DNA of 64,000 nucleotides from Bdellovibrionales bacterium (lineage in GTDB: Bacteria; Bdellovibrionota; Bdellovibrionia; Bdellovibrionales; UBA1609): contig CBDBGT010000011.1 in assembly GCA_965205365.1 (NCBI GenBank), forward strand, positions 36,292-100,291, given 5' to 3'. This document shows positions 9,076-61,696 of the stretch, one piece after another. Numbering within the stretch: position 1 is the stretch's first letter; the number at the start of each line of letters is the position of its first letter. Both the position numbers and the translations under genes were made by a program. Under the pieces are notes generated by a model. It worked only from the letters and a program-made list of their open reading frames with translations. It made no database searches and was not told the DNA's origin.

Positions 9076-11223
9076 TTTTTTTAAATAATTAAAGAGCTTA
9101 AGACCTTAATTTTTTTTTACTACTTTTGTATCAAAATAAGAAAAAAACAGTTCTTTGAAAACACTAAGTTAAAAATAAAGCTAAAAACCCACACTTATTA
9201 CGCCTTAATATTAAATTAAGAAAATCACTTAATTTACTCAAGTTTTTAAGCCCTTTATCCGATACATAGAGTATAAAATATAAGAATTTATATAGGATAT
9301 AACATGAAAGCTTTAACTTTATTTACAGTTTTATTATGGACGTTTTCTTCCTTGGCTGTGCCAAGTTCTTTTGTCTTTCAAGGTCAAATTATAAAGCCCA
9401 ATGGAGAAGCCCTAGAAGACAATAATGTTAACTTTATTCTTAAAATCCTATCTCCCCTAAACCACTGCCTCCTCTATGAAGAAACCTTCACCCTTAATAT
9501 GACAGACTCAAAGGGAGTGTTTAACCTAAGTGTTGGGTCTGGCACAACCACAGGAAATGGTGGCTTAACAAGTTTATCTAAAGCCCTAGACAATTCCTTA
9601 AACAACATCACAGGGCTTAACTGTGACTCTGGTTCCTCATACAGTCCAAGCCTCACTGACACAAGAAAACTTAGAATGACTTTTGATGACGGCAGTGGTC
9701 CCCTTACTCTAACAAATGACCACACAATTGAAAGTGTGCCCTATGCTCAGTATGCTCATAAACTTGGCGGAAAAACACTTCATGACTTTATTCAAGTCAA
9801 CAGTGGTGTGACACAAAGTAATTTAGAAACTGTGTTTGATAACGGTGTAAACCAAAGAGAGTTTATGGCTTTAATTGAGGGCCGTTCTAACCAATACTCT
9901 CCATTAAGCACTAGTGGAGCTAGTTCTTTACCGAGCTTTTCAAATCCTCCCCTTAACTCTAAGGCAGGAGATGTTTGGTACAACTCTACAACCAATGAAA
10001 TCATGTACCACAATGGATCAGTAAACACCGTTGTTGGCCAAGGGAGTGGAACTGTGACCAGTATCACCACAGGAAGTGGTCTAAGTGGTGGAATCATTAC
10101 AAACAGCGGTACAATTTCAATTGCCACAGGGGGTGTATTAAACAGTCACCTTCAAGGTGGTATCCATGGAAGTAAAATCACAGGAGGAGTTTTACCAGCC
10201 TCAGTGGTTCCAACAGGAACTGATGATACAAAGCTTTCTCTTCAAGGAGGAAGTTTATTAGGTGATCTTAACCTTAATGGAAATGAGGTTTTAAACACAG
10301 GTCATATTATGCAAAACCCGAGGAGTACAATGACCCTAGGTTCTTATGGGAATTTAGAAGAGGCTAGTCTTTTAGGTTCTTTGAGTGCGGGGAATGCTGG
10401 AGCCACTTGGTACAATAGTGATTCTAGTGTGCTTAAGTACTGGGATGGTAGTGGTGTAGAAGTTTTAACCACAGTGAGTGTAGGTGTATCAAGTGTTTTA
10501 GTGAGTCCCCCGTTAACTTCTTCAGGTGGTAATGATCCAAGACTAGGCATAAGCCTTGGTAGGGGTTTATACAACAAGAGTGGAAGTGTGGAGATAGATT
10601 TAGACTCTCTTAGTGGTTTAGACTTTAATGGAAGTAAGTTAAAGGTAAAGGCAGGAAGTGGTATAAGACTAACAGGAAGTGGTATAGAGGCAGATACGGG
10701 AACGAGTTTAGGTCAGTTAATGAGAGTAGACAGTCTTCCTGTGTGCACAAGTGGGGAAAAGATTCAAAGAAACTCTGGAGCCACAGTGACTTATTCTTGT
10801 GTGGCTGATGTAGATGAAGACACAAGTCTTTTAGGAAAATCAGCAGGAGGAGACCTTAGTGGAACTTATCCAAACCCCATTTTAACATCAACAGGGGTGA
10901 GTGAGGGAATCTACTTAAAAGTTAGAGTGGACACTAAGGGAAGGGTAAGAGAGGGTTTAAGTTTAGTAGAAAGTGATATACCAAACTTAAGTGGAAATAA
11001 AATCACTTCAGGAACCATTAATACAAATAGATTAAACACAGGAACAGGGAGTAATGACCTTGTTAAGCTTGATGGTTTATCAAGGTTACCAAGTGTAGAT
11101 GGGAGTCAGCTTATAAACTTACCAAGTAGTGCTGACAATATGGGAAATGGTGAGGCGCAAGAGAATATACATCTTAATGGAAATTATTTAAGTGGAGACG
11201 GTGATAATGAGGGAATTAGTGTA
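9076..11223 (+). repeat. About 2.1-kb direct repeat (upstream region plus fibre shaft); second copy at about 27786-29934
   Basis: About 230 bp of upstream DNA and about 640 codons are nearly identical between the two fibre genes. Confidence 0.95.
9238..9265 (+). promoter_or_regulatory. Putative sigma28 (FliA) promoter of fibre gene 1
   Basis: tcaagttt-ttaagcccttta-tccgatac about 40 bp before the ATG; resembles TAAAGTTT-N11-GCCGATAA. Confidence 0.55.
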
Positions 11224-12084
11224 AACAGTGATGGCGATGTTTCTGCAACAGGGTCTATTAGTGCATCTAGTGTTGTGCTTTTAAATGGAATAAAAATTGG
11301 AACAGAGACAACAACTTGTAGCAGTGTAAATGAGGGAACTTTAAGGTATAGTACTTTAGAAAAGAAAATGGAGTTTTGTAATGGAACAGTGTGGAGTGTT
11401 TTAGGTGTTGAGCCTGATCCATGTCTTGTGTCTTCTTCACCCCCCCCCCCCCCCCCCTCAGGAACCGTGTGTAAAGGTGGAGCAATTTATCTTGGAAGTC
11501 TTAGCCCAGGTGCTACTAGTGGAAGTGGAACAGATCACTATATGACCACCCCTGGGGGTTGTGAGGACATTCCATCAGGAAGTGTTTCAGGAGGTTCGGG
11601 GACAAATTCCTATGCATTAAATGATTTTACAGTGATTTGTTCTGGTACGGATAGCTTACATAAAGATTGGAATGATAGTTTAACTAATTACTACGATATT
11701 CCAGGGCTAGTAAACTACATATCAACTCCTGGAACTGGTCATGGTGAAAGTAACATAGATTTAAATTACGGTTCAGCTAATACAGATGCAATTGCTGCCA
11801 TCACTTTACCGCTTCAAGGGGGTTATCATGCCGCAGCAAGGTATTGTCATAAGCTTGTTTATGGTGGTTATGATGATTGGCATTTACCTAATCGTTATGA
11901 GCTTAATTTAATGTACACAAACCGCTCTGTTATTCGAGGTTTAGATCAAAATGGTTCATATTATTGGTCGTCTACGGAGGACGATCATTACTATGCGTGG
12001 GTCCAGAGATTCTCAGATGGATTCCAGCATAATTATGACGGCAAGGCCAACGATTTTTTGATTCGGTGTGTGCGGCGGTTTTGA
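9304..12084 (+). CDS. MAT-like (mosaic adhesive trimer) fibre adhesin 1 with C-terminal DUF1566/Lcl C-type-lectin domain
   Basis: Signal peptide; FQGQIIKPNG..LE...CLLYEE...GVFNLSVGSG and SVPYA N-terminal motifs; Gly-rich tail-fibre shaft; GYDDWHLPNRYEL...YWSSTE...AW...RCVRRF tip. Confidence 0.85.
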   Translation: MKALTLFTVLLWTFSSLAVPSSFVFQGQIIKPNGEALEDNNVNFILKILSPLNHCLLYEETFTLNMTDSKGVFNLSVGSGTTTGNGGLTSLSKALDNSLNNITGLNCDSGSSYSPSLTDTRKLRMTFDDGSGPLTLTNDHTIESVPYAQYAHKLGGKTLHDFIQVNSGVTQSNLETVFDNGVNQREFMALIEGRSNQYSPLSTSGASSLPSFSNPPLNSKAGDVWYNSTTNEIMYHNGSVNTVVGQGSGTVTSITTGSGLSGGIITNSGTISIATGGVLNSHLQGGIHGSKITGGVLPASVVPTGTDDTKLSLQGGSLLGDLNLNGNEVLNTGHIMQNPRSTMTLGSYGNLEEASLLGSLSAGNAGATWYNSDSSVLKYWDGSGVEVLTTVSVGVSSVLVSPPLTSSGGNDPRLGISLGRGLYNKSGSVEIDLDSLSGLDFNGSKLKVKAGSGIRLTGSGIEADTGTSLGQLMRVDSLPVCTSGEKIQRNSGATVTYSCVADVDEDTSLLGKSAGGDLSGTYPNPILTSTGVSEGIYLKVRVDTKGRVREGLSLVESDIPNLSGNKITSGTINTNRLNTGTGSNDLVKLDGLSRLPSVDGSQLINLPSSADNMGNGEAQENIHLNGNYLSGDGDNEGISVNSDGDVSATGSISASSVVLLNGIKIGTETTTCSSVNEGTLRYSTLEKKMEFCNGTVWSVLGVEPDPCLVSSSPPPPPPSGTVCKGGAIYLGSLSPGATSGSGTDHYMTTPGGCEDIPSGSVSGGSGTNSYALNDFTVICSGTDSLHKDWNDSLTNYYDIPGLVNYISTPGTGHGESNIDLNYGSANTDAIAAITLPLQGGYHAAARYCHKLVYGGYDDWHLPNRYELNLMYTNRSVIRGLDQNGSYYWSSTEDDHYYAWVQRFSDGFQHNYDGKANDFLIRCVRRF
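11440..11457 (+). repeat. C18 homopolymer, in frame (Pro6)
   Basis: 18 consecutive C between shaft and lectin tip; the paralogue has only C5 here. Confidence 0.9.
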
Positions 12085-28014: not shown

Positions 28015-31000
28015 ATGAAAGCTTTAACTTTATTTACAGTTTTATTATGGACGTTTTCTTCCTTGGCTGTGCCAAGGTCTTTTGTCTTTCAAGGTCAAAT
28101 TATAAAACCTAATGGGGAAGCCTTAGAAGATAATAATGTTAACTTTATTCTTAAAATCCTATCTCCCCTAAACCACTGCCTCCTCTATGAAGAAACCTTC
28201 ACCCTTAATATGACAGACTCAAAGGGAGTGTTTAACCTAAGTGTTGGGTCTGGCACAACCACAGGAAATGGTGGCTTAACAAGTTTATCTAAAGCCCTAG
28301 ACAATTCCTTAAACAACATCACAGGGCTTAACTGTGACTCTGGTTCTTCATACAGTCCAAACCTCACTGACACAAGAAAACTTAGAATGACTTTTGATGA
28401 CGGTGGTGGTCCCCTTACTCTAACAAATGACCACACAATTCAAAGTGTGCCCTACGCTCAGTATGCTCATAAACTTGGCGGAAAAACACTTCATGACTTT
28501 ATTCAAGTCAACAGTGGTGTGACACAAAGTAATTTAGAAACTGTGTTTGATAACGGTGTAAACCAAAGAGAGCTTATGGCTTTAATTGAGGGCCATTCTA
28601 ATCAATACTCTCCATTAAGCACTAGTGGAGCTAGTTCTTTACCTAGCTTTTCAAATCCTCCCCTTAACTCTAAGGCAGGAGATGTTTGGTACAACTCTAC
28701 AACCAATGAAATCATGTACCACAATGGATCAGTAAACACCGTTGTTGGCCAAGGGAGTGGAACTGTGACCAGTATCACCACAGGAAGTGGTCTAAGTGGT
28801 GGAATCATTACAAATAGCGGTACAATTTCAATTGCACCAGGGGGTGTATTAAACAGTCACCTTCAAGGTGGTATCCATGGAAGTAAAATCACAGGAGGAG
28901 TTTTACCAGCCTCAGTGGTTCCAACAGGAACTGATGACACAAAGCTTTCTCTTCAAGGGGGAAGTTTATTAGGTGATCTTAACCTTAATGGAAATGAGGT
29001 TTTAAACACAGGTCATATTATGCAAAACCCGAGGAGTACAATGACCCTAGGTTCTTATGGGAATTTAGAAGAGGCTAGTCTTTTAGGTTCTTTGAGTGCG
29101 GGGAATGCTGGAGCCACTTGGTACAATAGTGATTCTAGGGTGCTTAAATACTGGGACGGTAGTGGTGTAGAAGTGTTAACCACAGTGAGTGTAGGTGTAT
29201 CAAGTGTTTTAGTGAGTCCCCCGTTAACTTCTTCAGGTGGTAATGATCCAAGAATAGGCATAAGCCTTGGTAGGGGTTTATACAACAAGAGTGGAAGTGT
29301 GGAGATAGATTTAGACTCTCTTAGTGGTTTAGACTTTAATGGAAATAGGTTAAGAGTAAAAGCAGGAAGTGGTTTAAGACTAACAGGAAGTGGTATAGAG
29401 GCAGATACGGGAACGAGTTTAGGTCAGTTAATGAGAGTAGACAGTCTTCCTGTGTGCACAAGTGGGGAAAAGATTCAAAGAAACTCTGGAGCCACAGTGA
29501 CTTATTCTTGTGTGGCTGATGTAGATGAAGACACAAGTCTTTTAGGAAAATCAGCAGGAGGAGATCTTAGTGGAACTTATCCAAACCCCATTTTAACATC
29601 AACAGGGGTGAGTGAGGGAATTTATTCAAAAGTTAGAGTGGACACTAAGGGAAGGGTAAGAGAGGGTTTAAGTTTAGTAGAAAGTGATATACCAAATTTA
29701 AGTGGAAGTAAAATCACTTCAGGAACCATTAATACAAATAGATTAAACACAGGAACAGGGAGTAATGACCTTGTTAAGCTTGATGGTTTATCAAGGTTAC
29801 CAAGTGTAGATGGAAGTCAGCTTATAAATTTACCAAGTAGTGCTGACAATATGGGAAATGGTGAGGCTCAAGAGAATATACATCTTAATGAGCATTATTT
29901 AAGTGGAGACGGTGATAATGAGGGAATTAGTGTAGATGCATTAGGAAGGGTTGGAGTGGGTAAAAGGAATCCTCAAGCATTATTAGATGTTGCTGGAAAA
30001 GTAAGGGCAACAGAGATTTGTGATGAAAGAGGTGGAAACTGTAAGGATGTGTCAACAGGTTGGGATAGAGGGAGTGTAGGAGCAAACCAAGTGACCAACG
30101 TTCCTTTTGGAAATGTTTTAGGCACAGATGTTCAGACTGCAATTAATGAGCTTGATTCTAAAAAAGTTCCAATAACTAGAGAAATTGCAACAGTTTTAAA
30201 TAGTGGATTAAGTGGAGGGGGAGACTTATCCACCAACAAGAATTTAAGTGTGGATATTCATGGAACTGTAGAAGAAAGTATAGTGAGTGGTTTAGACAGT
30301 GTTTTAATTCACGATGTATCCCAAAATAGTTTAAAAAAAATAACACAGTCAAATTTTTTAAATGATTATTTTAAAGGATCTTTAGGAACGAGTTTAGGTG
30401 ATGCAATGGATGCTGGAGGTGTGCCTAGTTGTGGAGTGGATGAGAAGCTTAGAATGAGTCAAGGTCCTGTTTATTTATGGTCATGTGTGGTGGATGAAGA
30501 CACAAGTCTTTTAGGAAAATCAGCAGGAGGGGATCTTAGTGGAACTTATCCAAACCCCATTTTAACACCAACAGGGGTGAGTGAAGGAATCTACTTAAAA
30601 GTTAGAGTGGACACTAAGGGAAGAGTGACAGAGGGTTTAAGTTTATCAGAAAGTGATATACCAAATTTAAGTGGAAGTAAAATCACTTCAGGAACCATTA
30701 ATACAAATAGATTAAACACAGGAACAGGGAGTAATGACCTTGTTAAGCTTGATGGTTTATCAAGGTTACCCAGTGTAGATGGAAGTCAGCTTACAAACTT
30801 ACCAAGTAGTGCTGACAATATGGGAAATGGTGAGGCTCAAGAGAATATACATCTTAATGGAAATTATTTAAGTGGAGACGGTGATAATGAGGGAATTAGT
30901 GTAAACAGTGATGGTGATGTTTTTGCTTCTAGAAATATTGCTGCTGTGGGGTCTATTAGTGGATCTAGTGTTGTACTTTTAAATGGAATAAAAATAGGAA

Positions 31001-31764
31001 CAGAGGAAACAACTTGCAATACTTTAAACGAGGGAACTTTAAGGTATAGTGAAAAGAAAATGGAGTTTTGTAACGGAAGTGTGTGGAGTGTTTTAGGTGT
31101 TGATGATCCATGTCTTAGTTCTTCCCCCTTGCCAGGTGCTGTGTGTAAAGGTGGAGCAATTTATCTTGGAAGTCTTAGCCCAGGTGCTACCAGTGGTAGT
31201 GGAACAGATCACTACATGACCACCCCTGGGGGTTGTGGAGATATTCCATCAGGAAGTGTTTCAGGGGGTTCGGGGACAAATTCTTATGCATTAAATGATT
31301 TTACAGTGACTTGTTCTGGTACTGATAGTTTATTTAAAGATTGGAATAATAATACAAGTAATTGGTATAATATTCCAGGGCTAGCAAATTACACATCAAC
31401 TTTGGGAATTGGTCATGGTGAAAATAACATAGATTTAAATTACGGTTCAGCGAATACAGATGTAATTGTTGCCATTACTTTAGAGTCTCAAGGGGGCTAT
31501 CATGCCGCAGCAAGGTATTGTCATAAGCTTGTTTATGGTGGTTATGATGATTGGCATTTACCTAACCGCTATGAGCTTAATTTAATGTACACAAATCGTT
31601 CTGCTCTTCCAGGTTTGGTTCAAGGTTCAAATGCTTGGTATTGGTCGTCTACGGAGTACAATTTTACAATGCGTGGATCCAGCGGTTTTCTGATGGCTAT
31701 CAGAATGGCGGCAGTAAGAGCGATTCTCGGCGTGTTCGTTGTGTACGGAGGTTTTGAGGCCTGA
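28015..31764 (+). CDS. MAT-like fibre adhesin 2 with DUF1566-type tip; 1-nt frameshift in the last about 30 codons (homologous stop at 31755-31757)
   Basis: Paralogue of 9304..12084 with a 323-aa insertion. The homologous NAWIQRFSDG...RCVRRF* lies in another frame after the T4 run at 31662-31665. Confidence 0.85.
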   Translation: MKALTLFTVLLWTFSSLAVPRSFVFQGQIIKPNGEALEDNNVNFILKILSPLNHCLLYEETFTLNMTDSKGVFNLSVGSGTTTGNGGLTSLSKALDNSLNNITGLNCDSGSSYSPNLTDTRKLRMTFDDGGGPLTLTNDHTIQSVPYAQYAHKLGGKTLHDFIQVNSGVTQSNLETVFDNGVNQRELMALIEGHSNQYSPLSTSGASSLPSFSNPPLNSKAGDVWYNSTTNEIMYHNGSVNTVVGQGSGTVTSITTGSGLSGGIITNSGTISIAPGGVLNSHLQGGIHGSKITGGVLPASVVPTGTDDTKLSLQGGSLLGDLNLNGNEVLNTGHIMQNPRSTMTLGSYGNLEEASLLGSLSAGNAGATWYNSDSRVLKYWDGSGVEVLTTVSVGVSSVLVSPPLTSSGGNDPRIGISLGRGLYNKSGSVEIDLDSLSGLDFNGNRLRVKAGSGLRLTGSGIEADTGTSLGQLMRVDSLPVCTSGEKIQRNSGATVTYSCVADVDEDTSLLGKSAGGDLSGTYPNPILTSTGVSEGIYSKVRVDTKGRVREGLSLVESDIPNLSGSKITSGTINTNRLNTGTGSNDLVKLDGLSRLPSVDGSQLINLPSSADNMGNGEAQENIHLNEHYLSGDGDNEGISVDALGRVGVGKRNPQALLDVAGKVRATEICDERGGNCKDVSTGWDRGSVGANQVTNVPFGNVLGTDVQTAINELDSKKVPITREIATVLNSGLSGGGDLSTNKNLSVDIHGTVEESIVSGLDSVLIHDVSQNSLKKITQSNFLNDYFKGSLGTSLGDAMDAGGVPSCGVDEKLRMSQGPVYLWSCVVDEDTSLLGKSAGGDLSGTYPNPILTPTGVSEGIYLKVRVDTKGRVTEGLSLSESDIPNLSGSKITSGTINTNRLNTGTGSNDLVKLDGLSRLPSVDGSQLTNLPSSADNMGNGEAQENIHLNGNYLSGDGDNEGISVNSDGDVFASRNIAAVGSISGSSVVLLNGIKIGTEETTCNTLNEGTLRYSEKKMEFCNGSVWSVLGVDDPCLSSSPLPGAVCKGGAIYLGSLSPGATSGSGTDHYMTTPGGCGDIPSGSVSGGSGTNSYALNDFTVTCSGTDSLFKDWNNNTSNWYNIPGLANYTSTLGIGHGENNIDLNYGSANTDVIVAITLESQGGYHAAARYCHKLVYGGYDDWHLPNRYELNLMYTNRSALPGLVQGSNAWYWSSTEYNFTMRGSSGFLMAIRMAAVRAILGVFVVYGGFEA
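29524..30903 (+). repeat. Internal 411-bp (137-aa) module duplicated at 29524-29934 and 30493-30903; single copy in fibre 1 (10813-11223)
   Basis: DEDTSLLGKSAGGDLSGTYPNP...GDNEGISV occurs twice. Confidence 0.95.
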
Positions 31765-53589: not shown

Positions 53590-55658
53590 GGCTTCTCCTC
53601 AATTCTAACAACCCCACTTTATCCACTGGTATTGACAAACCAGCTTCAAAGCCTTTAAGGCAACCAGTGATGGCTTTAAAAGAAGTTAAAACTAGAAAAG
53701 CAAGAGCAATAAAAAGTCTAACTAAGAAGCTGTTTGAAAAGTCTAATTTGACTTGATTTAATAAGGCAAGAACTTCAAGGAAGAGGTAAAAATGTCTATT
53801 AAAAAAGGTTACGGAAGCGATTTAACAGATACTCAGTGGGAACAGCTCAAAAAATATTTACCAAAAGCAAAATCTGGAGGTCGACCAAGAGAAGTTGATC
53901 TTAGAGAAATAATGAACGCAATATTTTACATCAACAAAACAAGCTGTCCGTGGAGGTGGCTGCCAAAGGACTACCCACCGTGGCAAACAGTATATTCGTA
54001 TTTTAGAAGTTGGCGTCTTTCAGGGGCCTGGGAAAAAAATCAACTCCCAATTGAGCAAGTACTTGAGGAAAAAAGAGGGAAGAAATTCAACACCCTAAGG
54101 GGCCTGGCATGGACTTTCAGTCTGTGAAGACTACTTCTGTGGGAGGAATAAAGGGCTACGATGGTGGGAAAAAGGTGGTTGGCCGCAAACGCCACATTCT
54201 AGTGGATACTTTGGGGTTCATAATGACAGTGGTTGTACATGTAGCTGACATTCAAGATAGAGATGGTGGATTTTAGTTTTACAAAATATCATTTCAAGGT
54301 TTTCAAGTTTAAAATTGATTTAGGTAGATGGCGGTTACCGTGGGGACTTCATTCACTTTGCTAAAACTCTTTTCAGCCGTACCCTTGAGGTGGTTTTACG
54401 AACCGACAAGGATCCAGGATTTAAGGTTGTTAAAAAACGTTGGATTGTTGAACGAACTTTTGCATGGCTAGGAAATTATAGAAGGCATTCTAAAGATTAT
54501 AAAAGGCTGGCAGAATCAAGTGAAGCTATGATTTATATTTCTATGATTCATTTCATGGTCAGGAGAATTTAGACTTTTCAAACAGCTTCTAACATAACAC
54601 CAGAGCATGAGGAGGAAATAAATTGAACTATAAAAGATTTAGCAAGTTTTCGTATAAACCTTGATATAGCTAAAGTCGAGGGTCAGCAAGGGGCTCACTT
54701 AACAGCTTTAGAAGCCAACTTCACTCAAAAGCAAGAGGGGTTACTCCAGTATTTAGAACAACATAGAATTATGACACAGTCTGAATTAATGGAAAAAATA
54801 AGAAGCCATATTCGCCATATACAAAAAAATCAAACTACTGAGAAAAGATCAGAAGAAAGACGCCAAAAGAAACAAGAACAAAAAACCAAAGAAGCAATTA
54901 TTGATGGCAATCGTATGGTTTTTCACCCTATTAAGCCAGGTAAATTCACTATGGGTGATAAAGACACCTGGATGTTTGAAAGTGAAATCACTAAACCCTT
55001 TGATATGATGGCCACTAAAACCACACAAGTTATTTGGAGAAAAGTAACACAACTCGCTCAAAAAGAGTTTGGAGATAAATATAAAGAATTAATCTTAGAC
55101 CCATCGCGTTTTAAGGGAGATCTTAAGCCTGTAGAGGTGGCCTTTAGAGATGTTGACTTGTGGATCAGTGCTTTAAACGAACTGTCACAAAATGGTCATA
55201 CTGGTCTTAAAGGAGTTATTCTAAGCCATAAGCAGGGTCATACCTACAGGCTTCCCACAGAGCCTGAGTGGGAGTTTGTTGTTAAAGGGCGAGGACAGTA
55301 TAATGAAACCTACCATTTTGGTAGCAACAAGTCTGACTTAGTAGAATATGCTTGGTTTGCTGAAAATTCTTAAAAGCAAACCCATGAGGTTGCACAGAAA
55401 AAGCCTCTGGTTATTAATGGTAAAGAATTTTACGATATGTATGGAAATGTTTTGGAATTGACAGGAACCTGGCAGGATGATTATCCGACCTCACCACAGG
55501 TGAACTGGAATGGCCCTAGTAGTGGCTTCTTCCGTGTGGTGCGCGGCGGTAGCTGGTTCAACTTCGCTGAGAACGTGCGGTCGGCAAGTCGTGACTTCAG
55601 GTGGCCGAGTAATCGTGAAGATTGGATTGGGTTCCGCCTTGTGAGGACTGTCCATTAA
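53590..55658 (+). pseudogene. FGE-sulfatase (SUMF1/C-type-lectin fold) protein pseudogene, IS-interrupted with in-frame stops
   Basis: F.MG, YRLPTEPEWE, DMYGNV.E, RVVRGGSW, GFRLV motifs. The frame joins across the IS once the TAA duplication is removed. TGA near 54624; TAA at 55371. Confidence 0.85.
53726..54589 (+). mobile_element. IS5-family (IS1031/IS427-type) element with a degraded transposase
   Basis: Perfect IRs gaagctgtttgaaaagtctaa / ttagacttttcaaacagcttc; TAA duplication; Y.SDLTD.QW, WRWLP.DYP and RWIVERTFAW in broken frames. Confidence 0.93.
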
Positions 55659-55736
55659 CCATTATGTTAAGTTGTTCATTTAATATTTCATTCTTTTAAA
55701 ACACAATCGTATTTACTCCACATAACACTTTGCTCA

Positions 55737-55900
55737 ACATAAGCTCTCTGACACTGCTATTGTGAGCTTGGACTTAATGTAAGCTTTAATATTTATTTTG
55801 TATTTTTTAATAATTTTTGCAAATTTCGAAAATGAATTAAGTTTTGACCCTTAAACCAGTAAATACCACTTAACTAAAAGTTTTCTAAATTCTTTAATTA
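55737..55900 (-). mobile_element. Degenerate ISL3 transposase fragment
   Basis: IKEFRKLLVKWY..*GSKLNSFSKFAKIIKKY...YIKSKLTIAVSESL aligns with the intact ISL3 C-terminus in this window. Confidence 0.7.
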
Positions 55901-56015
55901 TTAACTTTTCATCCATTTTACTTCTTTCCTTCCAGGCCATTTTAAGTGCCTCCTTTCTAGGAAAGTGTAAACCATGTCTCGGGTATAAAATGTAAACTAT
56001 GTGTTAAGACGGACA
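55900..56015 (-). mobile_element. IS481-family left end; second copy at 58500-58615
   Basis: Minus strand begins TGTCC..., has internal gtttaca repeats, then RBS aaggagg and MAWKERSKMDEKL. Confidence 0.7.
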
Positions 56016-56085
56016 TTTCTGCTTGTTTATTCTGCTCCAAAAGTCTAATGAACATAGGCAACTAAACTAGACTTTAGGAGGTCAC

Positions 56086-57945
56086 ATGAAACAGTTTTTA
56101 ATTCTTGGTATGATTATTTTTTTTGGAGCTACACAAGGTTTTGCTCATATACCTGAAGTAGATGCAGATAAAATTACAGAATGTAGGAATATTTTAATAA
56201 CCTGAGTTCGGCGATCTAAGCTACTATCAGAGCGGTGTTTATCAATTTTTGTTCTTCTGCGCTCCAGTTGATTCTTGGTTTTTTTTCTTGAAATGTATAC
56301 GCTACAAGCCCTGCAATTATATTAACCATGGCGTTTGTAGGACTACGGTGTCTAGAGTGCTCTACTTGAGAAATATTTTTAAGCTGATCATTTATGGTCT
56401 CAATAACTGAGCGCTTTCGTAAAAGAATTTTATCCTCCATTTCCATCAACCTATTCTTCATGCCTTTTCTGACGGAAGTGATCAGTTTGACCCCATTTTC
56501 AAAAAGCTCATTAAATAACTTTTTTGAAATATAACCTTTATCAGCAAACAGCTTTCCCCATAAACCCTCTGCCAACTTAGGAACAGGTTTTCTGTCATCA
56601 ACATTGCCAGCTGTAATCTGTGCAGATAACAAATGGCCAAACTCATTGGTGACAATGTGAAGTTTAAATCCAAAAAACCAACCCATTGTAGACTTTCCAA
56701 CTGCAGCTATGTCTTTGAAAACTTTATTCCTTTTAATGCGTTTATTTCTACATACTCTCAGAGGTGTAGAGTCGATAAAATTGATTCCTGTTGACTTTAC
56801 AAACCGTGATTTTAAAAAAGAACAAAGAGGTATGAGTGCTGAGGGGATAAGCTCTACAAATCTTGTGTAGCTTACCAAATAAGGGAAGTCCCCTTTGTGA
56901 TAAGCTCTCAAGTGTAGATAGAATTGCTTGAAGGTTCTAAATCCACATGGGTGAAATAGAATTAAAATTGATATAACTTCACTTATTGCTAGATTTGAGG
57001 GCGTACCTCTAAAAGGCTTTCGATTTTCTAAGGCTTGTTTTTTATAAACATTTTCATAATGCATACAAAAATCATCGACAGCGCAAAAAACAGTGGTAAG
57101 CTTATCTTGAGTCATAAAATTCCTTTTTAAAATTGCCGTCATTGGCGTTTTTGTTTGAACTAAGGATTTTATGGCTTTTTTTGTTTTCTGGGATTGCAAG
57201 GGGCGTCAAAAACTTTAAACACTTATTTTATAAAGAATGTAACGCCGAACTCAGGTTAATAGATTCCATTACTCGCAATAATATAAAAGGCCTTGAATTA
57301 TTTTTCAGTGAACAAACTAATTGCAGCAATATCTTTAGTATTGATGCTGATATTGATGGTAAAACAGCTCTTATATGGGCTTCAGAGCATGGCTACACTC
57401 AACTTGTAAAAGCATTAATTGAAAATGGGGCTGATGTAAATATTCAAAATAAATATAAATACACAGCTCTTCTATGGGCTTCATTGGAGGGTCACACTAA
57501 AATTGCAAAAGCGTTAATTGACGCTGGGGCTGATGTAAATATTCAAAATAAATATAAATACACAGCTCTTCTATGGGCTTCATTGGAGGGTCACACTAAA
57601 ATTGCAAAAGCGTTAATTGACGCTGGGGCTGATGTAAATATTCAAAATAAATATAAAGAGACAGCTCTTATATTGGCTTCATGGAAGGGTCACACTAAAA
57701 TTGTAAAAGCGTTAATTGACGCTGGGGCTGATGTAAATATTCAAAATAAATATTATAAATACACAGCTCTTATATGGGCTTCATGGAAGGGCCACACTAA
57801 AATTGCAAAAGCGTTAATTGACGCTGGGGCTGATGTAAATATTCAAAATAAAAATAAAAACACAGCTCTTATATTGGCTTCATGGAGGGGTCACACTAAA
57901 ATTGTAAAAGCGTTAATTGACGCTGGGGCAGAGAGACAGGGGTAG
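56086..57945 (+). pseudogene. Secreted ankyrin-repeat gene (6 repeats) interrupted by IS982
   Basis: AGGAGG RBS, MKQFLILG signal peptide. Removing the IS and one taata restores ECRNILIDSITRNN in frame, matching the paralogue ECKNILTDSITHNN. Confidence 0.92.
56200..57256 (-). mobile_element. IS982-family element, apparently intact (transposase ORF 56216..57199, real start probably internal)
   Basis: IRs acctgagttcggcg / cgccgaactcaggt; 5-bp duplication taata; IDSTP, GWFFGFKLH, ADKGY, KRSVIET, EHSRHRS motifs. Confidence 0.95.
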
Positions 57946-57980
57946 ATTACTGTAAAAACAAAGAAATAAAAAACAACAGT

Positions 57981-58312
57981 TATGAAAGGTAGGAGTAATA
58001 CTTCTCATATTTTCACAAACTTCTTTTGCAAGTTACTATTGCGAGGCATTCTGCGGTGGACTCGATGATGTGAATGTTGATCAAGGTGGAACATTTTATT
58101 ATCGTATTTATAAAAGAGCTAAGTATATTGCTTACCCTATTTGGGGGGAGGGAGGAAGTAAAACCAAAGCCTTTCGCCAAATGAAAAAAGAATGTAGAGT
58201 TTATTCTAAAAGATATATTTTACATTATGGTTTTATTGGTGATTACACTTATGAGACACATACAGGTTTAATTGTTTCAGGTAATTTACGAGGAGCCTCT
58301 CCAGAGTTATAG
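57981..58312 (+). pseudogene. Small exported Cys-containing protein, frameshifted at its start
   Basis: The frame of ORF 58070..58312 extends upstream as VGVILLIFSQTSFASYYCEAFCGG; the nearest ATG is out of frame. Confidence 0.4.
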
Positions 58313-58426
58313 AAAACTCAATGCGTGTAGCTCCCACTCCCTACAAGGAAATAACGTCTAGAAAACGCTAAGTGTAGCTATGTGCATATGCTGGTACAAC
58401 AAAAATAGCCTTATATCATAGTCTTG

Positions 58427-58449
58427 GACAGTTTCCCTTGGTAATGACA
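58427..58449. repeat. 23-bp IS end, perfect inverted copy of 59786-59808
   Basis: gacagtttcccttggtaatgaca / tgtcattaccaagggaaactgtc. Confidence 0.85.
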
Positions 58450-58685
58450 TGGACAGTGAGCCTCCACTTACCCACAGATTTTACTGAAGAGGCATAAATA
58501 TTAACTTTTCATCCATTTTACTTCTTTCCTTCCAGGCCATTTTAAGTGCCTCCTTTCTAGGAAAGTGTAAACCATGTCTCGGGTATAAAATGTAAACTAT
58601 GTGTTAAGACGGACATTTCTGCTTGCTTATTCTGCTCCAAAAGTCTAATGAACATAGGCAACTAAACTAGACTTTAGGAGGTCAC

Positions 58686-59201
58686 ATGAAACAGTTTTTA
58701 ATTCTTGGTATGATTATTTTTTTTGGAGCTACACAAGGTTTTGCTCATATACCTGAAGTAGATGCAGATAAAATTACAGAATTTACAGAATGTAAAAATA
58801 TTTTAACAGATTCCATTACTCACAATAATATAAAAGGCCTTGAATTGTTTTTCAGTGAACAAACTAATTGCAGCAATATCTTTAGTATTGATATTATTGA
58901 TCCTGATATTGATGGTAAAACAGCTCTTATGCGGGCTTCAGAGCGTGGCTACACTAAAATTGCAAAAGCGTTAATTGACGCTGGGGCTGATCTGAATATT
59001 CAAGATGAAGATAAAAACACAGCTCTTATATGGGCTTCATGGCAGGGTCACATTCAACTTGCAAAAGCGTTAATTGACGCTGGGGCTGATGTAAATATTC
59101 AAGGTGAAGATAAATACACAGCTCTTGCACGGGCTTTAGTGGAGAACCACGATGAAATTGCAAAAATGTTAATTGACGCTGGGGCAGAGAGACAGGGGTA
59201 G
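58686..59201 (+). CDS. Secreted ankyrin-repeat protein (3 repeats)
   Basis: RBS aggagg, signal peptide, TAL..AS..G...IAKALIDAGAD repeats. Confidence 0.92.
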   Translation: MKQFLILGMIIFFGATQGFAHIPEVDADKITEFTECKNILTDSITHNNIKGLELFFSEQTNCSNIFSIDIIDPDIDGKTALMRASERGYTKIAKALIDAGADLNIQDEDKNTALIWASWQGHIQLAKALIDAGADVNIQGEDKYTALARALVENHDEIAKMLIDAGAERQG

Positions 59202-59411
59202 ATTACTGTAAAAACAAAGAAATAAAAAACAACAGTTATGAAAGGTAGGAGTAACACTTCTCATATTTTCACAAACTTCTTTTGCAAGTTACTATTGCGA
59301 GGCATTCTGCGGTGGACTCGATGATGTGAATGTTGATCAAGGTGGAACATTTTATTATCGTATTTATAAAAGAGCTAAGTATATTGCTTACCCTATTTGG
59401 GGGGAGGCTCA

Positions 59412-59760
59412 CTACCATTTTGGTAGCAAAGAGTCTGACTTAGGAGAATATGCTTGGTTTGCTGAAAATTCTTAAAAGCAAACCCATGAGGTTGCACAGA
59501 AAAAGCCTCTGGTTATTGATGGTAAAAAATTTTACGATATGTATGGAAATGTTTTGGAATGGACAGGAACCTGGTATGGCCCTTATCCGACCTCACCACA
59601 GGTGAACTGGAATGGCCCTAGTAGTGGCCGGGGCCGTGTGGCGCGCGGCAGTAGCTGGCTTAGCAGCGCTCAGTTTGTGCGGTCGACAAATTGTCGCTAC
59701 GAGTGGCCGGAGAATCGTAAGAGTCGTATGGGGTTCCGCCTTGTGAGGGTTGTCCATTAA
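59412..59760 (+). pseudogene. Duplicated 3' fragment of the FGE/C-type-lectin gene with a different variable region
   Basis: Colinear with 55310-55658, no indels; same TAA at 59473. Confidence 0.9.
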
Positions 59761-59785
59761 CCATTGTGTTAAGTTGTGAGCTTCC

Positions 59786-60550
59786 TGTCATTACCAAGGG
59801 AAACTGTCACCTTAATTACCAAGGGATTATGTCAGTATCGGTGGGTTAAAAAAAACACTTAACTTAACCAGCAATCTATGCAGCCTTTAAACTGCCTTTT
59901 GTGGGCCCATCCTTTTCCCTGGTTCTTAATGCAATAGTTTCAAGGTTGTTCCTCACCCATATATATCTAATCTTTCCCCTACTTAAGTTTAGGGAGAAAT
60001 ATTTTTTTATAAATTTTGAAACTTGAGCTTCTCCAAGATGAGGATTCTGTATAGAAAAATTAACAACAAGTTTTTCACCTGTCATCATCTTTTTATTTTT
60101 AGAATAAAACTCAGCTTTAAACGTTTTAATAAAATAAAACTCTCCCCTAGTCTCTATAACTTTTTTTACTCGATATATTTTTTGCCTAGAAATTTTTGTT
60201 ATTTGTGAGGCTTTACTAACACTATTTAATTCTTTAGAAAGCCTAACTGCCTTAACTATTTCTTTGGCCTCAGTTTCCCTAAAGGTTACAACTTTTGATC
60301 TTTTATTTTCAGATACATTTAAAATTTTATCTGCAAAATAAAAACCTACTTCTCCATTTAAATTTGTTCTAATTTCTACTCTGTAATTAACAAGAGAATT
60401 TTTTAATTTTGAAACTATAGAGTAGTCCCCTCCTTTATAACTAAAAGTATGGTCTTTATTTATTTTTCTATACTCTTTAATGTTAAATACGCTGGTTAGT
60501 TTCTTCTTATCTCTAACTTTAGTGTATTCACAGGTTGTTTCTACAGGCAT
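59786..60550 (-). mobile_element. ISNCY/IS1202-like transposase 3' remnant with TGTCA terminus
   Basis: F...EYRKINKDHTFSYKG..Y domain followed by an IS481-like HTH; the terminal IR has a subterminal ttaccaaggga repeat. Confidence 0.65.
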
Positions 60551-60664: not shown

Positions 60665-61696
60665 TTAGCCTGCGCCAATGGCTTTTTTAACATCTTTAAG
60701 TACCAGTCTTGTAACTTCTCGAGCTTTTAAAGCACCTTCTTTTAAAATGGTATTGAGCTCGTCTCTGTTTTCCATATAATGATTATATATTTCTCTAGGC
60801 CCTAGAAGCCTTTTATTCAAAACTTCAAAGAGCTCTTGTTTAGCCTCTCCCCAAGAAATTCCTTGGGCATATTTTTTTTCTAAACTTTGAATTTGTTCTC
60901 TATTTGCAAATTCAGAATAAAGTTGAAAAATCAAACTTGTCTTTGTTTCCTTAGGCTCTCCAGGAAGAGAGGAGTCCGTTGTAATCTTCATAATTGCTTT
61001 TCTAAGTTTTTTTTCAGGTAAAAAAACTGGAATATGATTATTATAAGAGGTGCTCATTTTCCGCCCATCTAGTCCAGGAAGAAGCTTTCCACCTTTTTTA
61101 ATCATAAGCTCAGGATAAACAAAAACATCATTTTGAAAAAGTCTATTAAACTTTCTAGCAACATCTCTTGCAATCTCTAGGTGTTGAGCATTGTCCTCTC
61201 CAACAGGAACTTTGTTTGCATTAAATGCTAAGATATCTGCTGTCATTAAAAGTGGATAGGTAAATAACCCCATATTTACATCATCATCTAAATCAAGTTT
61301 CCCTGCTTCTTTATTTGAAGCAGTTTTAGCTTTATACGCATGTGCTCTATTGAGTAAACCTTTTGGAGTCACTGTTGCTAAAATCACTGAGATTTCCATA
61401 ATTTCTGGAATATCAGACTGTTTATAAAAAACAACTTTTTTAGGGTCTAAACCCAGAGCAAGCCAAGTTGCTGCAACTTCTGCTGTGGTGTCGACTAAAG
61501 TTTTAACATCTTTAACAACATTTAATGCATGGTAATCTGCAATAAAAAAATATCCTACATCAACACTATCTTTAACCATATCTAACGCAGGCTCAATAGC
61601 GCCCACCCAATTGCCCAGATGAATACCTGTTGCTTTAATTCCTGTAAGTACTTTTCCCATATATCGTATTGTATCTTGTATATAAAATTTAAACAA
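60665..61696 (-). CDS. trpS: Tryptophanyl-tRNA synthetase (start probably internal, at MGKVLTG)
   Basis: TGIKATG.HLGN, ADYHA, YPLLM.ADIL, VPVGED..QH.E, KMSTS. Confidence 0.93.
   Translation of the reverse strand: MFKFYIQDTIRYMGKVLTGIKATGIHLGNWVGAIEPALDMVKDSVDVGYFFIADYHALNVVKDVKTLVDTTAEVAATWLALGLDPKKVVFYKQSDIPEIMEISVILATVTPKGLLNRAHAYKAKTASNKEAGKLDLDDDVNMGLFTYPLLMTADILAFNANKVPVGEDNAQHLEIARDVARKFNRLFQNDVFVYPELMIKKGGKLLPGLDGRKMSTSYNNHIPVFLPEKKLRKAIMKITTDSSLPGEPKETKTSLIFQLYSEFANREQIQSLEKKYAQGISWGEAKQELFEVLNKRLLGPREIYNHYMENRDELNTILKEGALKAREVTRLVLKDVKKAIGAG

Follow-up and report, generated by a model that had tools for sequence, protein, structure and literature searches.

Two duplicated gene fragments with a shared stop codon and divergent tips as probable relics of diversity-generating retroelement targets in a Bdellovibrionales bacterium

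We characterized two related 3' gene ends, copies a and b, located in a 64,000-nucleotide stretch of the genome of a Bdellovibrionales bacterium (assembly GCA_965205365.1, contig CBDBGT010000011.1, positions 36,292 to 100,291 of the forward strand; the window). In diversity-generating retroelements (DGRs), a reverse transcriptase (RT) makes cDNA from a template repeat (TR) while misreading adenines, and this cDNA takes the place of the variable region (VR) that forms the 3' end of a target gene. Copies a and b are, with high confidence, relic tips of such DGR targets. Both come from a paralogous family of putatively secreted proteins of the formylglycine-generating enzyme (FGE)/C-type-lectin type that were remote targets of the element, both are dead as genes and both carry the same in-frame nonsense codon, followed by differently written VRs. 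We propose that an ancestral gene died first, that its 3' end was then duplicated and that tip rewriting from a now missing template came afterwards; we favour this whole chain tentatively, our confidence in it staying slightly below even. The case adds a well-resolved instance of DGR decay to those known and does not point to a new mechanism, the one less ordinary feature being the two duplicated dead fragments with differently written tips. Coordinates are collected in Table 1, where positions without prefix refer to the window and the prefixes C5, C11 and C13 to contigs of the genome.

Copies a and b align without gaps over 366 nt with 49 differing positions, and their homology stops at offset 366, past which identity is at chance level (~0.33-0.40). 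An initial annotation of the window had already described the gapless alignment, about 6 differences in the first ca. 160 bp, an in-frame TAA in both copies and about 42 substitutions in 24 codons of the last part. All of these observations were reproduced. Exactly 6 differences were counted in the first 160 nt (offsets 18, 19, 32, 106, 115 and 149), the TAA is found at 55371-55373 in copy a and at 59473-59475 in copy b, and from codon 54 on 42 substitutions are spread over 24 codons. The same annotation had stressed that none of the changes is silent. Here the count holds, with 30 of 117 codons differing and none of them synonymously, whereas the weight given to it does not: the chance of zero synonymous changes among the 15 codons with a single-base difference is ~0.02 if 23% of random substitutions are taken as synonymous. 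The lack of silent changes is thus only mildly unusual and weaker than it first appears because most differing codons hold two or three changes. Synonymous differences to other paralogues are present, for example CGC/CGT and GCA/GCG. What stands out is the distribution of differences along the alignment, as 34 of the 107 positions between 55523 and 55629 differ (32%) compared with 15 of 259 in the flanks (5.8%; 12/213 upstream and 3/46 downstream; Fisher p=3.7e-10).

When the TAA is read as X, copy a matches PF03781 (FGE-sulfatase) at profile positions 8-255 of 255 (E=9.8e-25), and copy b matches the same profile at positions 154-255 (E=5e-14), the first two thirds of the gene being gone. The best solved relative of copy a is variable protein 1 of Treponema denticola (TvpA, 2y3c; E=1.9e-19, residues 153-291), with true formylglycine-generating enzymes far behind (E ~1e-6 to 1e-7). 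Both the TvpA and the Pfam match support the initial assignment of the region from GGSW to GFR to a DGR variable region. Metagenomic homologues of copy a share 40-52% identity, measure 368-513 aa and possess an N-terminal signal-like region that copy a is without. Two of these homologues, P0002 and P0005, are identical over ~90 residues and differ in the tip alone, in line with how the family behaves elsewhere.

That the copies are dead, as suggested initially, is borne out by their lesions. The homology of copy a to its paralogues on C5 begins at 54589, and its 5' end is cut at 54590 by an insertion sequence (IS); besides the TAA it contains a TGA at 54624-54626. Copy b is a 366-bp fragment, bordered on its left by a truncated ankyrin-gene 3' flank ending at 59406 and on its right by a repeat starting at ~59777 that is found in at least 5 other places. 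At the position of the TAA, the residue in homologues is G, N, S, E or D, and the genomic paralogues C5:119162-120071 and C5:41156-41921 (copies c and d) have a CAA codon, which marks the TAA as a C-to-T change in a variable loop. Readthrough or recoding of the TAA, by which the genes would be alive, can draw on the shared position of the codon and on nothing else. We rejected this explanation as having next to no probability, since copy a also carries the TGA and an IS-cut 5' end, only the last third of the gene is left in copy b, the codon in the paralogues is CAA and the genes themselves use TAA as their terminator.

Neither copy had been regarded as the template in the initial annotation, and an A-rich template with AAC codons, TR1, was indeed found elsewhere in the genome (13 contigs, 98% complete), where it matches all tips. 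TR1 is located directly after an RT fragment with IGNLTSQ and YMDDF motifs (RT-A), so that a TR/RT locus, proposed initially as something to look for, exists, with a truncated RT. We refer to this element as DGR-A. A sequence at the VR 3' end, GGGTTCCGCCTTGTGAG, is common to TR1, copy a and copy b, the next base being G in the VRs and T in TR1, and copy b shows two extra changes at 59749-59750. The 3' end of the copy a VR thus resembles an initiation of mutagenic homing (IMH) site. A small inverted repeat starting in the stop codon (55659-55675) is also present in subfamily 1 of the FGE-type targets (C5:710137 region); its position is conserved, and its stems differ by subfamily (TTAAC/GTTAA for the copies here and TTAGT/ACTAA for subfamily 1). 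Regarding a hairpin 3' of the VR, only a 5-bp AT-rich stem was found, which is no more stable than shuffled sequences (z-scores 0.59 and 0.89).

The RT-A fragment comprises only the C-terminal 189-190 aa and aligns to residues 197-367 of the RT of a second DGR in this genome. It scores 41.1 bits on RVT_1 and retains DGR-clade features (SQ in motif 4, YxDD), but the enzyme is broken; in searches with NCBIfam models, all matches of the RTs stayed below cut-off. The best solved match of RT-A is chain 8ub7_A, deposited as 'Reverse transcriptase' (E=3e-18), an entry that we take to be the Bordetella enzyme. The N-terminal half of RT-A was not found elsewhere in the genome, and in its place lies an IS remnant that is 97-99% identical to other copies. 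No Avd was detected near C5:708-711 kb beside RT-A and TR1 in a genome search with PF05635, whose matches were all weak (17.3 bits, below cut-off) and located next to the second DGR. The Avd of DGR-A may have been lost along with the RT N-terminus. Using blastn and an nhmmer --max profile scan, TR1 was the sole FGE-type template found in the genome, the 10 profile matches being 8 VRs or TRs of this kind and 2 members of a third FGE-type family inside open reading frames (ORFs).

Two further sets of sequences indicate how DGR-A worked when intact. Subfamily 1 consists of large proteins with open frames of 954-1043 aa and tips that follow TR1, three VRs varying at 25 of 31 TR1 adenines compared with 4 of 76 other sites. 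One of the genes is split by an IS beside the TR, one is without its N-terminus and one is apparently intact, with a 9-nt insertion in the tip. Further, a genome of the same order, G034, encodes an intact 342-aa RT that is 76% identical to the RT-A fragment, together with a TR that is 84% identical to TR1, in the same order of RT, TR and helix-turn-helix (HTH) gene. Its FGE-type target VR differs from its own TR at 12 of 28 adenines and at 1 of 79 other sites. Judged by these figures, G034 is a clean positive control for a presumably active element of this lineage.

Copies a and b belong to a separate subfamily 2, of which five copies were found in the genome. All five are broken, each differently, and the intact expressed copy envisaged in the initial annotation is not among them (0/5). 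The VR is kept in four (a, b, c and d). When 40 relatives, including 4 from the same genus, were searched at the DNA level, no gene-length match to this subfamily emerged; 2 genomes gave short VR-like matches and a third gave a single match of 34 nt. Scans for exact occurrences of three conserved VR blocks gave 0 matches in metagenome contigs and 0 in genome contigs, a type of scan that misses variants.

The divergence of the two tips follows the template in part. At TR1 adenines copies a and b differ at 18 of 31 sites, elsewhere at 16 of 76 (odds ratio 5.2, p=4e-4), and according to our reading of the alignment 12 of these 16 non-adenine differences sit in codons containing a TR1 adenine. Mismatches to TR1 itself, flanks included, number 20/36 at adenines and 18/98 at other sites in copy a (21/36 and 21/98 in copy b), while within the VR proper the two copies agree with TR1 at 62 and 60 of the 76 non-adenine sites, respectively. 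The initial annotation had proposed to collect all genomic copies and to test whether variable sites map to template adenines. For a and b they do so in part, the enrichment at adenines standing beside 16 non-adenine sites that also differ, whereas the three subfamily-1 VRs and G034 follow the pattern cleanly. Upstream of the tip, subfamily-1 and subfamily-2 genes are 58% identical (173/300), and the subfamily-2 consensus departs from TR1 at only 9 of the 76 non-adenine sites of the tip. Judged from these identities, the resemblance of the tips to the template goes far beyond that between the genes. Ordinary paralogue divergence or relaxed decay without any targeted process would account for the varying non-adenine sites, and other copies do show changes of this kind, such as the Trp to Leu change in GGSW and the 3-nt insertion in copy d. 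We nevertheless consider it improbable given the enrichment at template adenines and a density of differences in the TR-homologous stretch that is 5-6 times that of the flanks. One cluster of differences falls outside this stretch: in a 9-nt block that corresponds to the variable loop 'WYGD' of homologues, all four VR-bearing copies are mutually different. It sits 42 nt upstream of the TR1-homologous stretch and is therefore not explained by TR1.

Given the repeat-rich region, we considered that a collapse or chimera in the assembly might have created the second copy or its TAA. Read support was taken from the unitigs of two runs of one sample, which is probably the source of the assembly, so that this support is not independent of it. 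These were the only runs found to contain the sequence, and no RNA run turned up. The unitigs reproduce 55152-55372, 55498-55928 and 59599-59811 with 0 differences, the two tips being covered at similar depth (21.7 and 25.9 for 55498-55928; 13.8 and 18.7 for 59599-59811). Both tips are therefore real and joined to their own downstream flanks. The TAA of copy b lies in a 73-nt block that is identical in both copies (55343-55415 in copy a) and cannot be told apart in unitigs, while the sole contig with a C at 59473 carries the letters of copy d. Taken together, the unitigs argue against a chimera, and an assembly artefact is highly improbable; they are silent on DGR activity.

Flank states that group copies a and b against c and d lie on either side of the variable stretch, at 55368, 55371 and 55453 on the 5' side and at 55642 and 55665-55675 on the 3' side. 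Common to a and b are thus the TAA, other derived flank states and the 14 nt past the stop, and the most economical order of events is the TAA first, then duplication, then rewriting. In this scenario, a CAA-to-TAA mutation would have killed the ancestral copy, whose 3' end would then have been duplicated to give a and b. One or both VRs, at least one of them, would later have been rewritten by mutagenic retrohoming, which would need only the VR 3' end and no open frame. In the Bordetella phage system, as described in the text of one study, the sequence preceding the VR can be dispensed with, and a resistance gene that was truncated and non-functional served well as a recipient (PMC3240598); a dead frame would therefore be no obstacle. 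The rewriting template would have been a second one, no longer in the assembly, rather than the present TR1. DGR-A would since have been disabled by an IS and would therefore produce no diversification now. As the IS remnant in the RT is 97-99% identical to its relatives and the flanks of a and b are ~3-6% different, there would have been time for homing after the duplication.

A number of observations weigh against this scenario. Between a and b, 16 of 76 non-adenine sites differ, and among the private tip states (12 in copy a, ~10 in copy b) copy b has 6 non-adenine changes, all of them transitions. At three synonymous sites all four tips read T, G and T, in contrast to C, T and C in TR1 and likewise in the G034 template; since the common ancestor of the four, no tip has therefore been overwritten by the present TR1, and another template must be postulated. 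No such second FGE-type template was found in the 98%-complete assembly by blastn or nhmmer --max. Copies b, c and d have common non-template states at five TR1-adenine sites, which speaks for descent from one ancestral VR rather than for fully independent rewriting, and in the block 55569-55574 copy a pairs with d and copy b with c, contrary to the flank tree. Further, no VR variants were seen in the unitigs of the two runs, though unitigs drop rare variants. An older version of TR1 as the template was rejected because the G034 template keeps the TR1 bases at the sites that set all four copies apart. The fixed differences would be accounted for by a second, diverged template, and a lost second copy of DGR-A is not far-fetched because the genome's other DGR exists in three copies. 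On this evidence, the tips would descend from one ancestral tip and would have been changed later in a templated, tip-restricted way. Targeted mutagenesis of dead copies, one of two possibilities raised in the initial annotation, hence stands as the most economical reading and is supported by the adenine enrichment, but it has to accommodate the non-adenine differences and a present template that is excluded as the writer.

The main rival is a recombination mosaic, in which the tips diversified in living genes and later gene conversion joined a TAA-bearing segment to old tips or spread the TAA, so that no dead gene was mutagenized and some paralogues are now lost. The conflict between VR sites and the flank tree fits this view, in the block 55569-55574 and in a b=c=d pattern at 12 VR sites, as do the common non-template states at TR1-adenine sites, which would reflect shared descent of VR parts. 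The two copies are also separated by 4.1 kb of patchwork made up of duplications and IS elements, and the TAA falls within the 73-nt block, the longest identical block of the 5' flank. By our rough estimate, however, a gap of this length among 6 differences in ~163 nt is not unusual (~0.2). Moreover, a/b-specific states lie close to the VR on both sides, at 55453 and at 55642, the latter 13 nt downstream of the variable stretch. A conversion tract limited to the VR would thus share no more than 13 nt of 3' homology with its target unless it came from another a/b-type copy, in which case the VR would again have had to change specifically inside the clade. Neither blastn nor the nhmmer scan detected a genomic donor for the states private to a or b, and the mosaic needs as many lost parts as the favoured scenario. 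We therefore regard it as an unlikely but serious alternative.

The second possibility raised in the initial annotation was that a and b are silent cassettes, feeding an expressed lectin gene by gene conversion in the manner of pilS/pilE or vls. Copy b would suit such a role in being a promoterless 3' fragment with little beyond the variable tip and conserved flanks. However, its ends are an IS boundary and a deletion junction and not a designed cassette border, none of the five subfamily copies is intact, and the sole clearly intact FGE target in the genome, the subfamily-1 gene C5:593133-596261, matches TR1 at non-adenine sites, unlike the a/b-type copies. Related copies are also absent from the 40 relatives by DNA search, the short VR-like matches aside. 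The idea did not hold up, and we consider functional cassettes very improbable.

Table 1. Location of the copies, template, retroelement loci and neighbouring elements discussed in the text
Feature	Location	Strand	Remarks
Copy a, FGE/C-type-lectin DGR target pseudogene	54591..55661	+	natural stop 55659-55661
Copy b, 3' fragment of the same gene	59412..59777	+	366 bp = 116 codons + 14 nt
Variable region of copy a	55523..55629	+	by alignment to TR1, 107 nt
Variable region of copy b	59625..59731	+	by alignment to copy a and TR1
IMH-like 3' end of the copy a VR	55629..55650	+	matches TR1 through GTGAG, then G (VR) vs T (TR1)
9-nt cluster	55473-55481 (a), 59575-59583 (b)	+	6 differences, QDD in a vs YGP in b
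Template repeat TR1	C5:708707-708836	-	A-rich, AAC codons, matches all tips
Copy c	C5:119162-120071		2-nt insertion and 10-nt deletion
Copy d	C5:41156-41921		5'-truncated, TAA at another codon, 3-nt insertion in tip, Trp to Leu in GGSW
Copy e	C5:92130-92730		3' third lost
IS4/IS5-type element truncating copy a	53725..54590	+	32-nt inverted ends, DUF4096 ORF 53792-54127
1059-bp IS inside ankyrin-repeat gene between a and b	56199..57257	-	DDE_Tnp_1_3 transposase 56216-57199
Two ankyrin-repeat paralogues with repeated flanks	57133-57945 and 58686-59201	+	part of the duplicated patchwork separating a and b
Second-DGR loci	C11:405130-407266, C5:245022-247158, C5:416730-419892
1249-aa ORF, second-DGR target	28015-31764, VR 31641-31752	+	13/36 adenines changed, 1 other site
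926-aa ORF, DUF1566-type target family	9304-12084, partial VR match 11964-12020	+

Beyond DGR-A, the genome contains the second DGR, which appears intact, with a 383-aa RT, an ORF of weak similarity to Avd and a TR with many AAC/AAT codons. One of its three copies has an IS in the start of the RT. Its target tip is DUF1566-like ('WSSTE...VRCVR'), and of 25 VR-like matches 9 have 0-2 non-adenine mismatches, the rest up to 16. Two ORFs of the window relate to this element. The VR of the 1249-aa ORF has a 1-nt gap that shifts the frame inside the VR, and the 926-aa ORF gives a partial, more diverged match to the second-DGR template (6/15 adenines, 4/42 other sites). The third FGE-type family consists of C13:203541-204410 (-; 290 aa) and C13:339517-340935 (+; 473 aa), whose tips have weak similarity to the VR profile (E ~1e-11) and no template; the longer one has an internal domain duplication.

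The genome carries a very heavy IS load, with a 1.87-kb IS present in at least 25 genome copies at >=99.5% identity. In the window, the 1059-bp IS between a and b is represented by a single unitig at ~9 times the depth of unique sequence. In other contigs, 56193 is directly followed by 57256 and 53721 by 54589, the IS being absent; these contigs may represent empty sites or paralogous loci. Downstream of copy b, the top matches of a tryptophanyl-tRNA synthetase gene (60665-61696, minus strand) reach at most 82% identity, and its first named relatives, at 55-60%, are from Bdellovibrionaceae, Pseudobdellovibrionaceae and Halobacteriovorax. The bacterium thus probably represents a little-described lineage close to the Bdellovibrio-like bacteria.

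Among known systems, a close counterpart is the DGR of Treponema denticola with its target TvpA, which is the best solved relative of copy a and has its VR at the C-terminus of an FGE-sulfatase-type fold. In both systems several targets are remote from the RT; seven non-adjacent DGR targets are reported for Treponema in the text of a survey (PMC5758913). Here, in contrast, the RT is truncated, no Avd was found near RT-A and TR1, and the whole a/b subfamily consists of pseudogenes. Similarities to the Bordetella phage BPP-1 system (Mtd, Brt, Avd) include a TR with AAC codons and a VR whose 3' end equals the TR and then diverges at the IMH. In contrast to BPP-1, the order is RT-TR-HTH, targets lie elsewhere and no GC-rich hairpin follows the VR. 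The G034 DGR is intact, canonical and orthologous, whereas DGR-A has lost ~150 N-terminal RT residues. Many elements of the present case are on record in the texts of published surveys, including transposon-truncated RTs, VRs outside recognisable genes and remote targets (DiGReF, PMC3521204; Wu et al., PMC5758913). Substitutions other than A-to-N are described there at up to 11 positions of a target (PMC5758913), and with 14-16 non-adenine mismatches of 76 to the sole template the VRs of a and b exceed this reported maximum (PMC5758913). A full-text literature search found no description of duplicated pseudogene fragments with a shared nonsense codon and differently written tips, although the supplementary tables of the surveys, which are outside such a search, may hold cases.

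In conclusion, the locus illustrates how a DGR and its target family decay in an IS-ridden genome, with the RT cut by one IS, the cognate target split by another and the remote targets dead one by one. As a lesson for annotation, hypervariable VR-like ends should be read as relics rather than active targets when they show many non-adenine mismatches and lack an intact RT in the vicinity. It is possible, though in our view a little less probable than the order of events itself, that the DGR kept rewriting dead duplicated fragments from a since-lost template and that the tips constitute a record of mutagenesis free of selection. If this is true, non-adenine changes would be frequent in such a record and would gather in adenine-bearing codons. 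Rewriting of the tips after gene death, if it took place, would be a natural demonstration that retrohoming ignores target function, and relics of this kind could be used to read the raw mutational spectrum of DGRs without selection.

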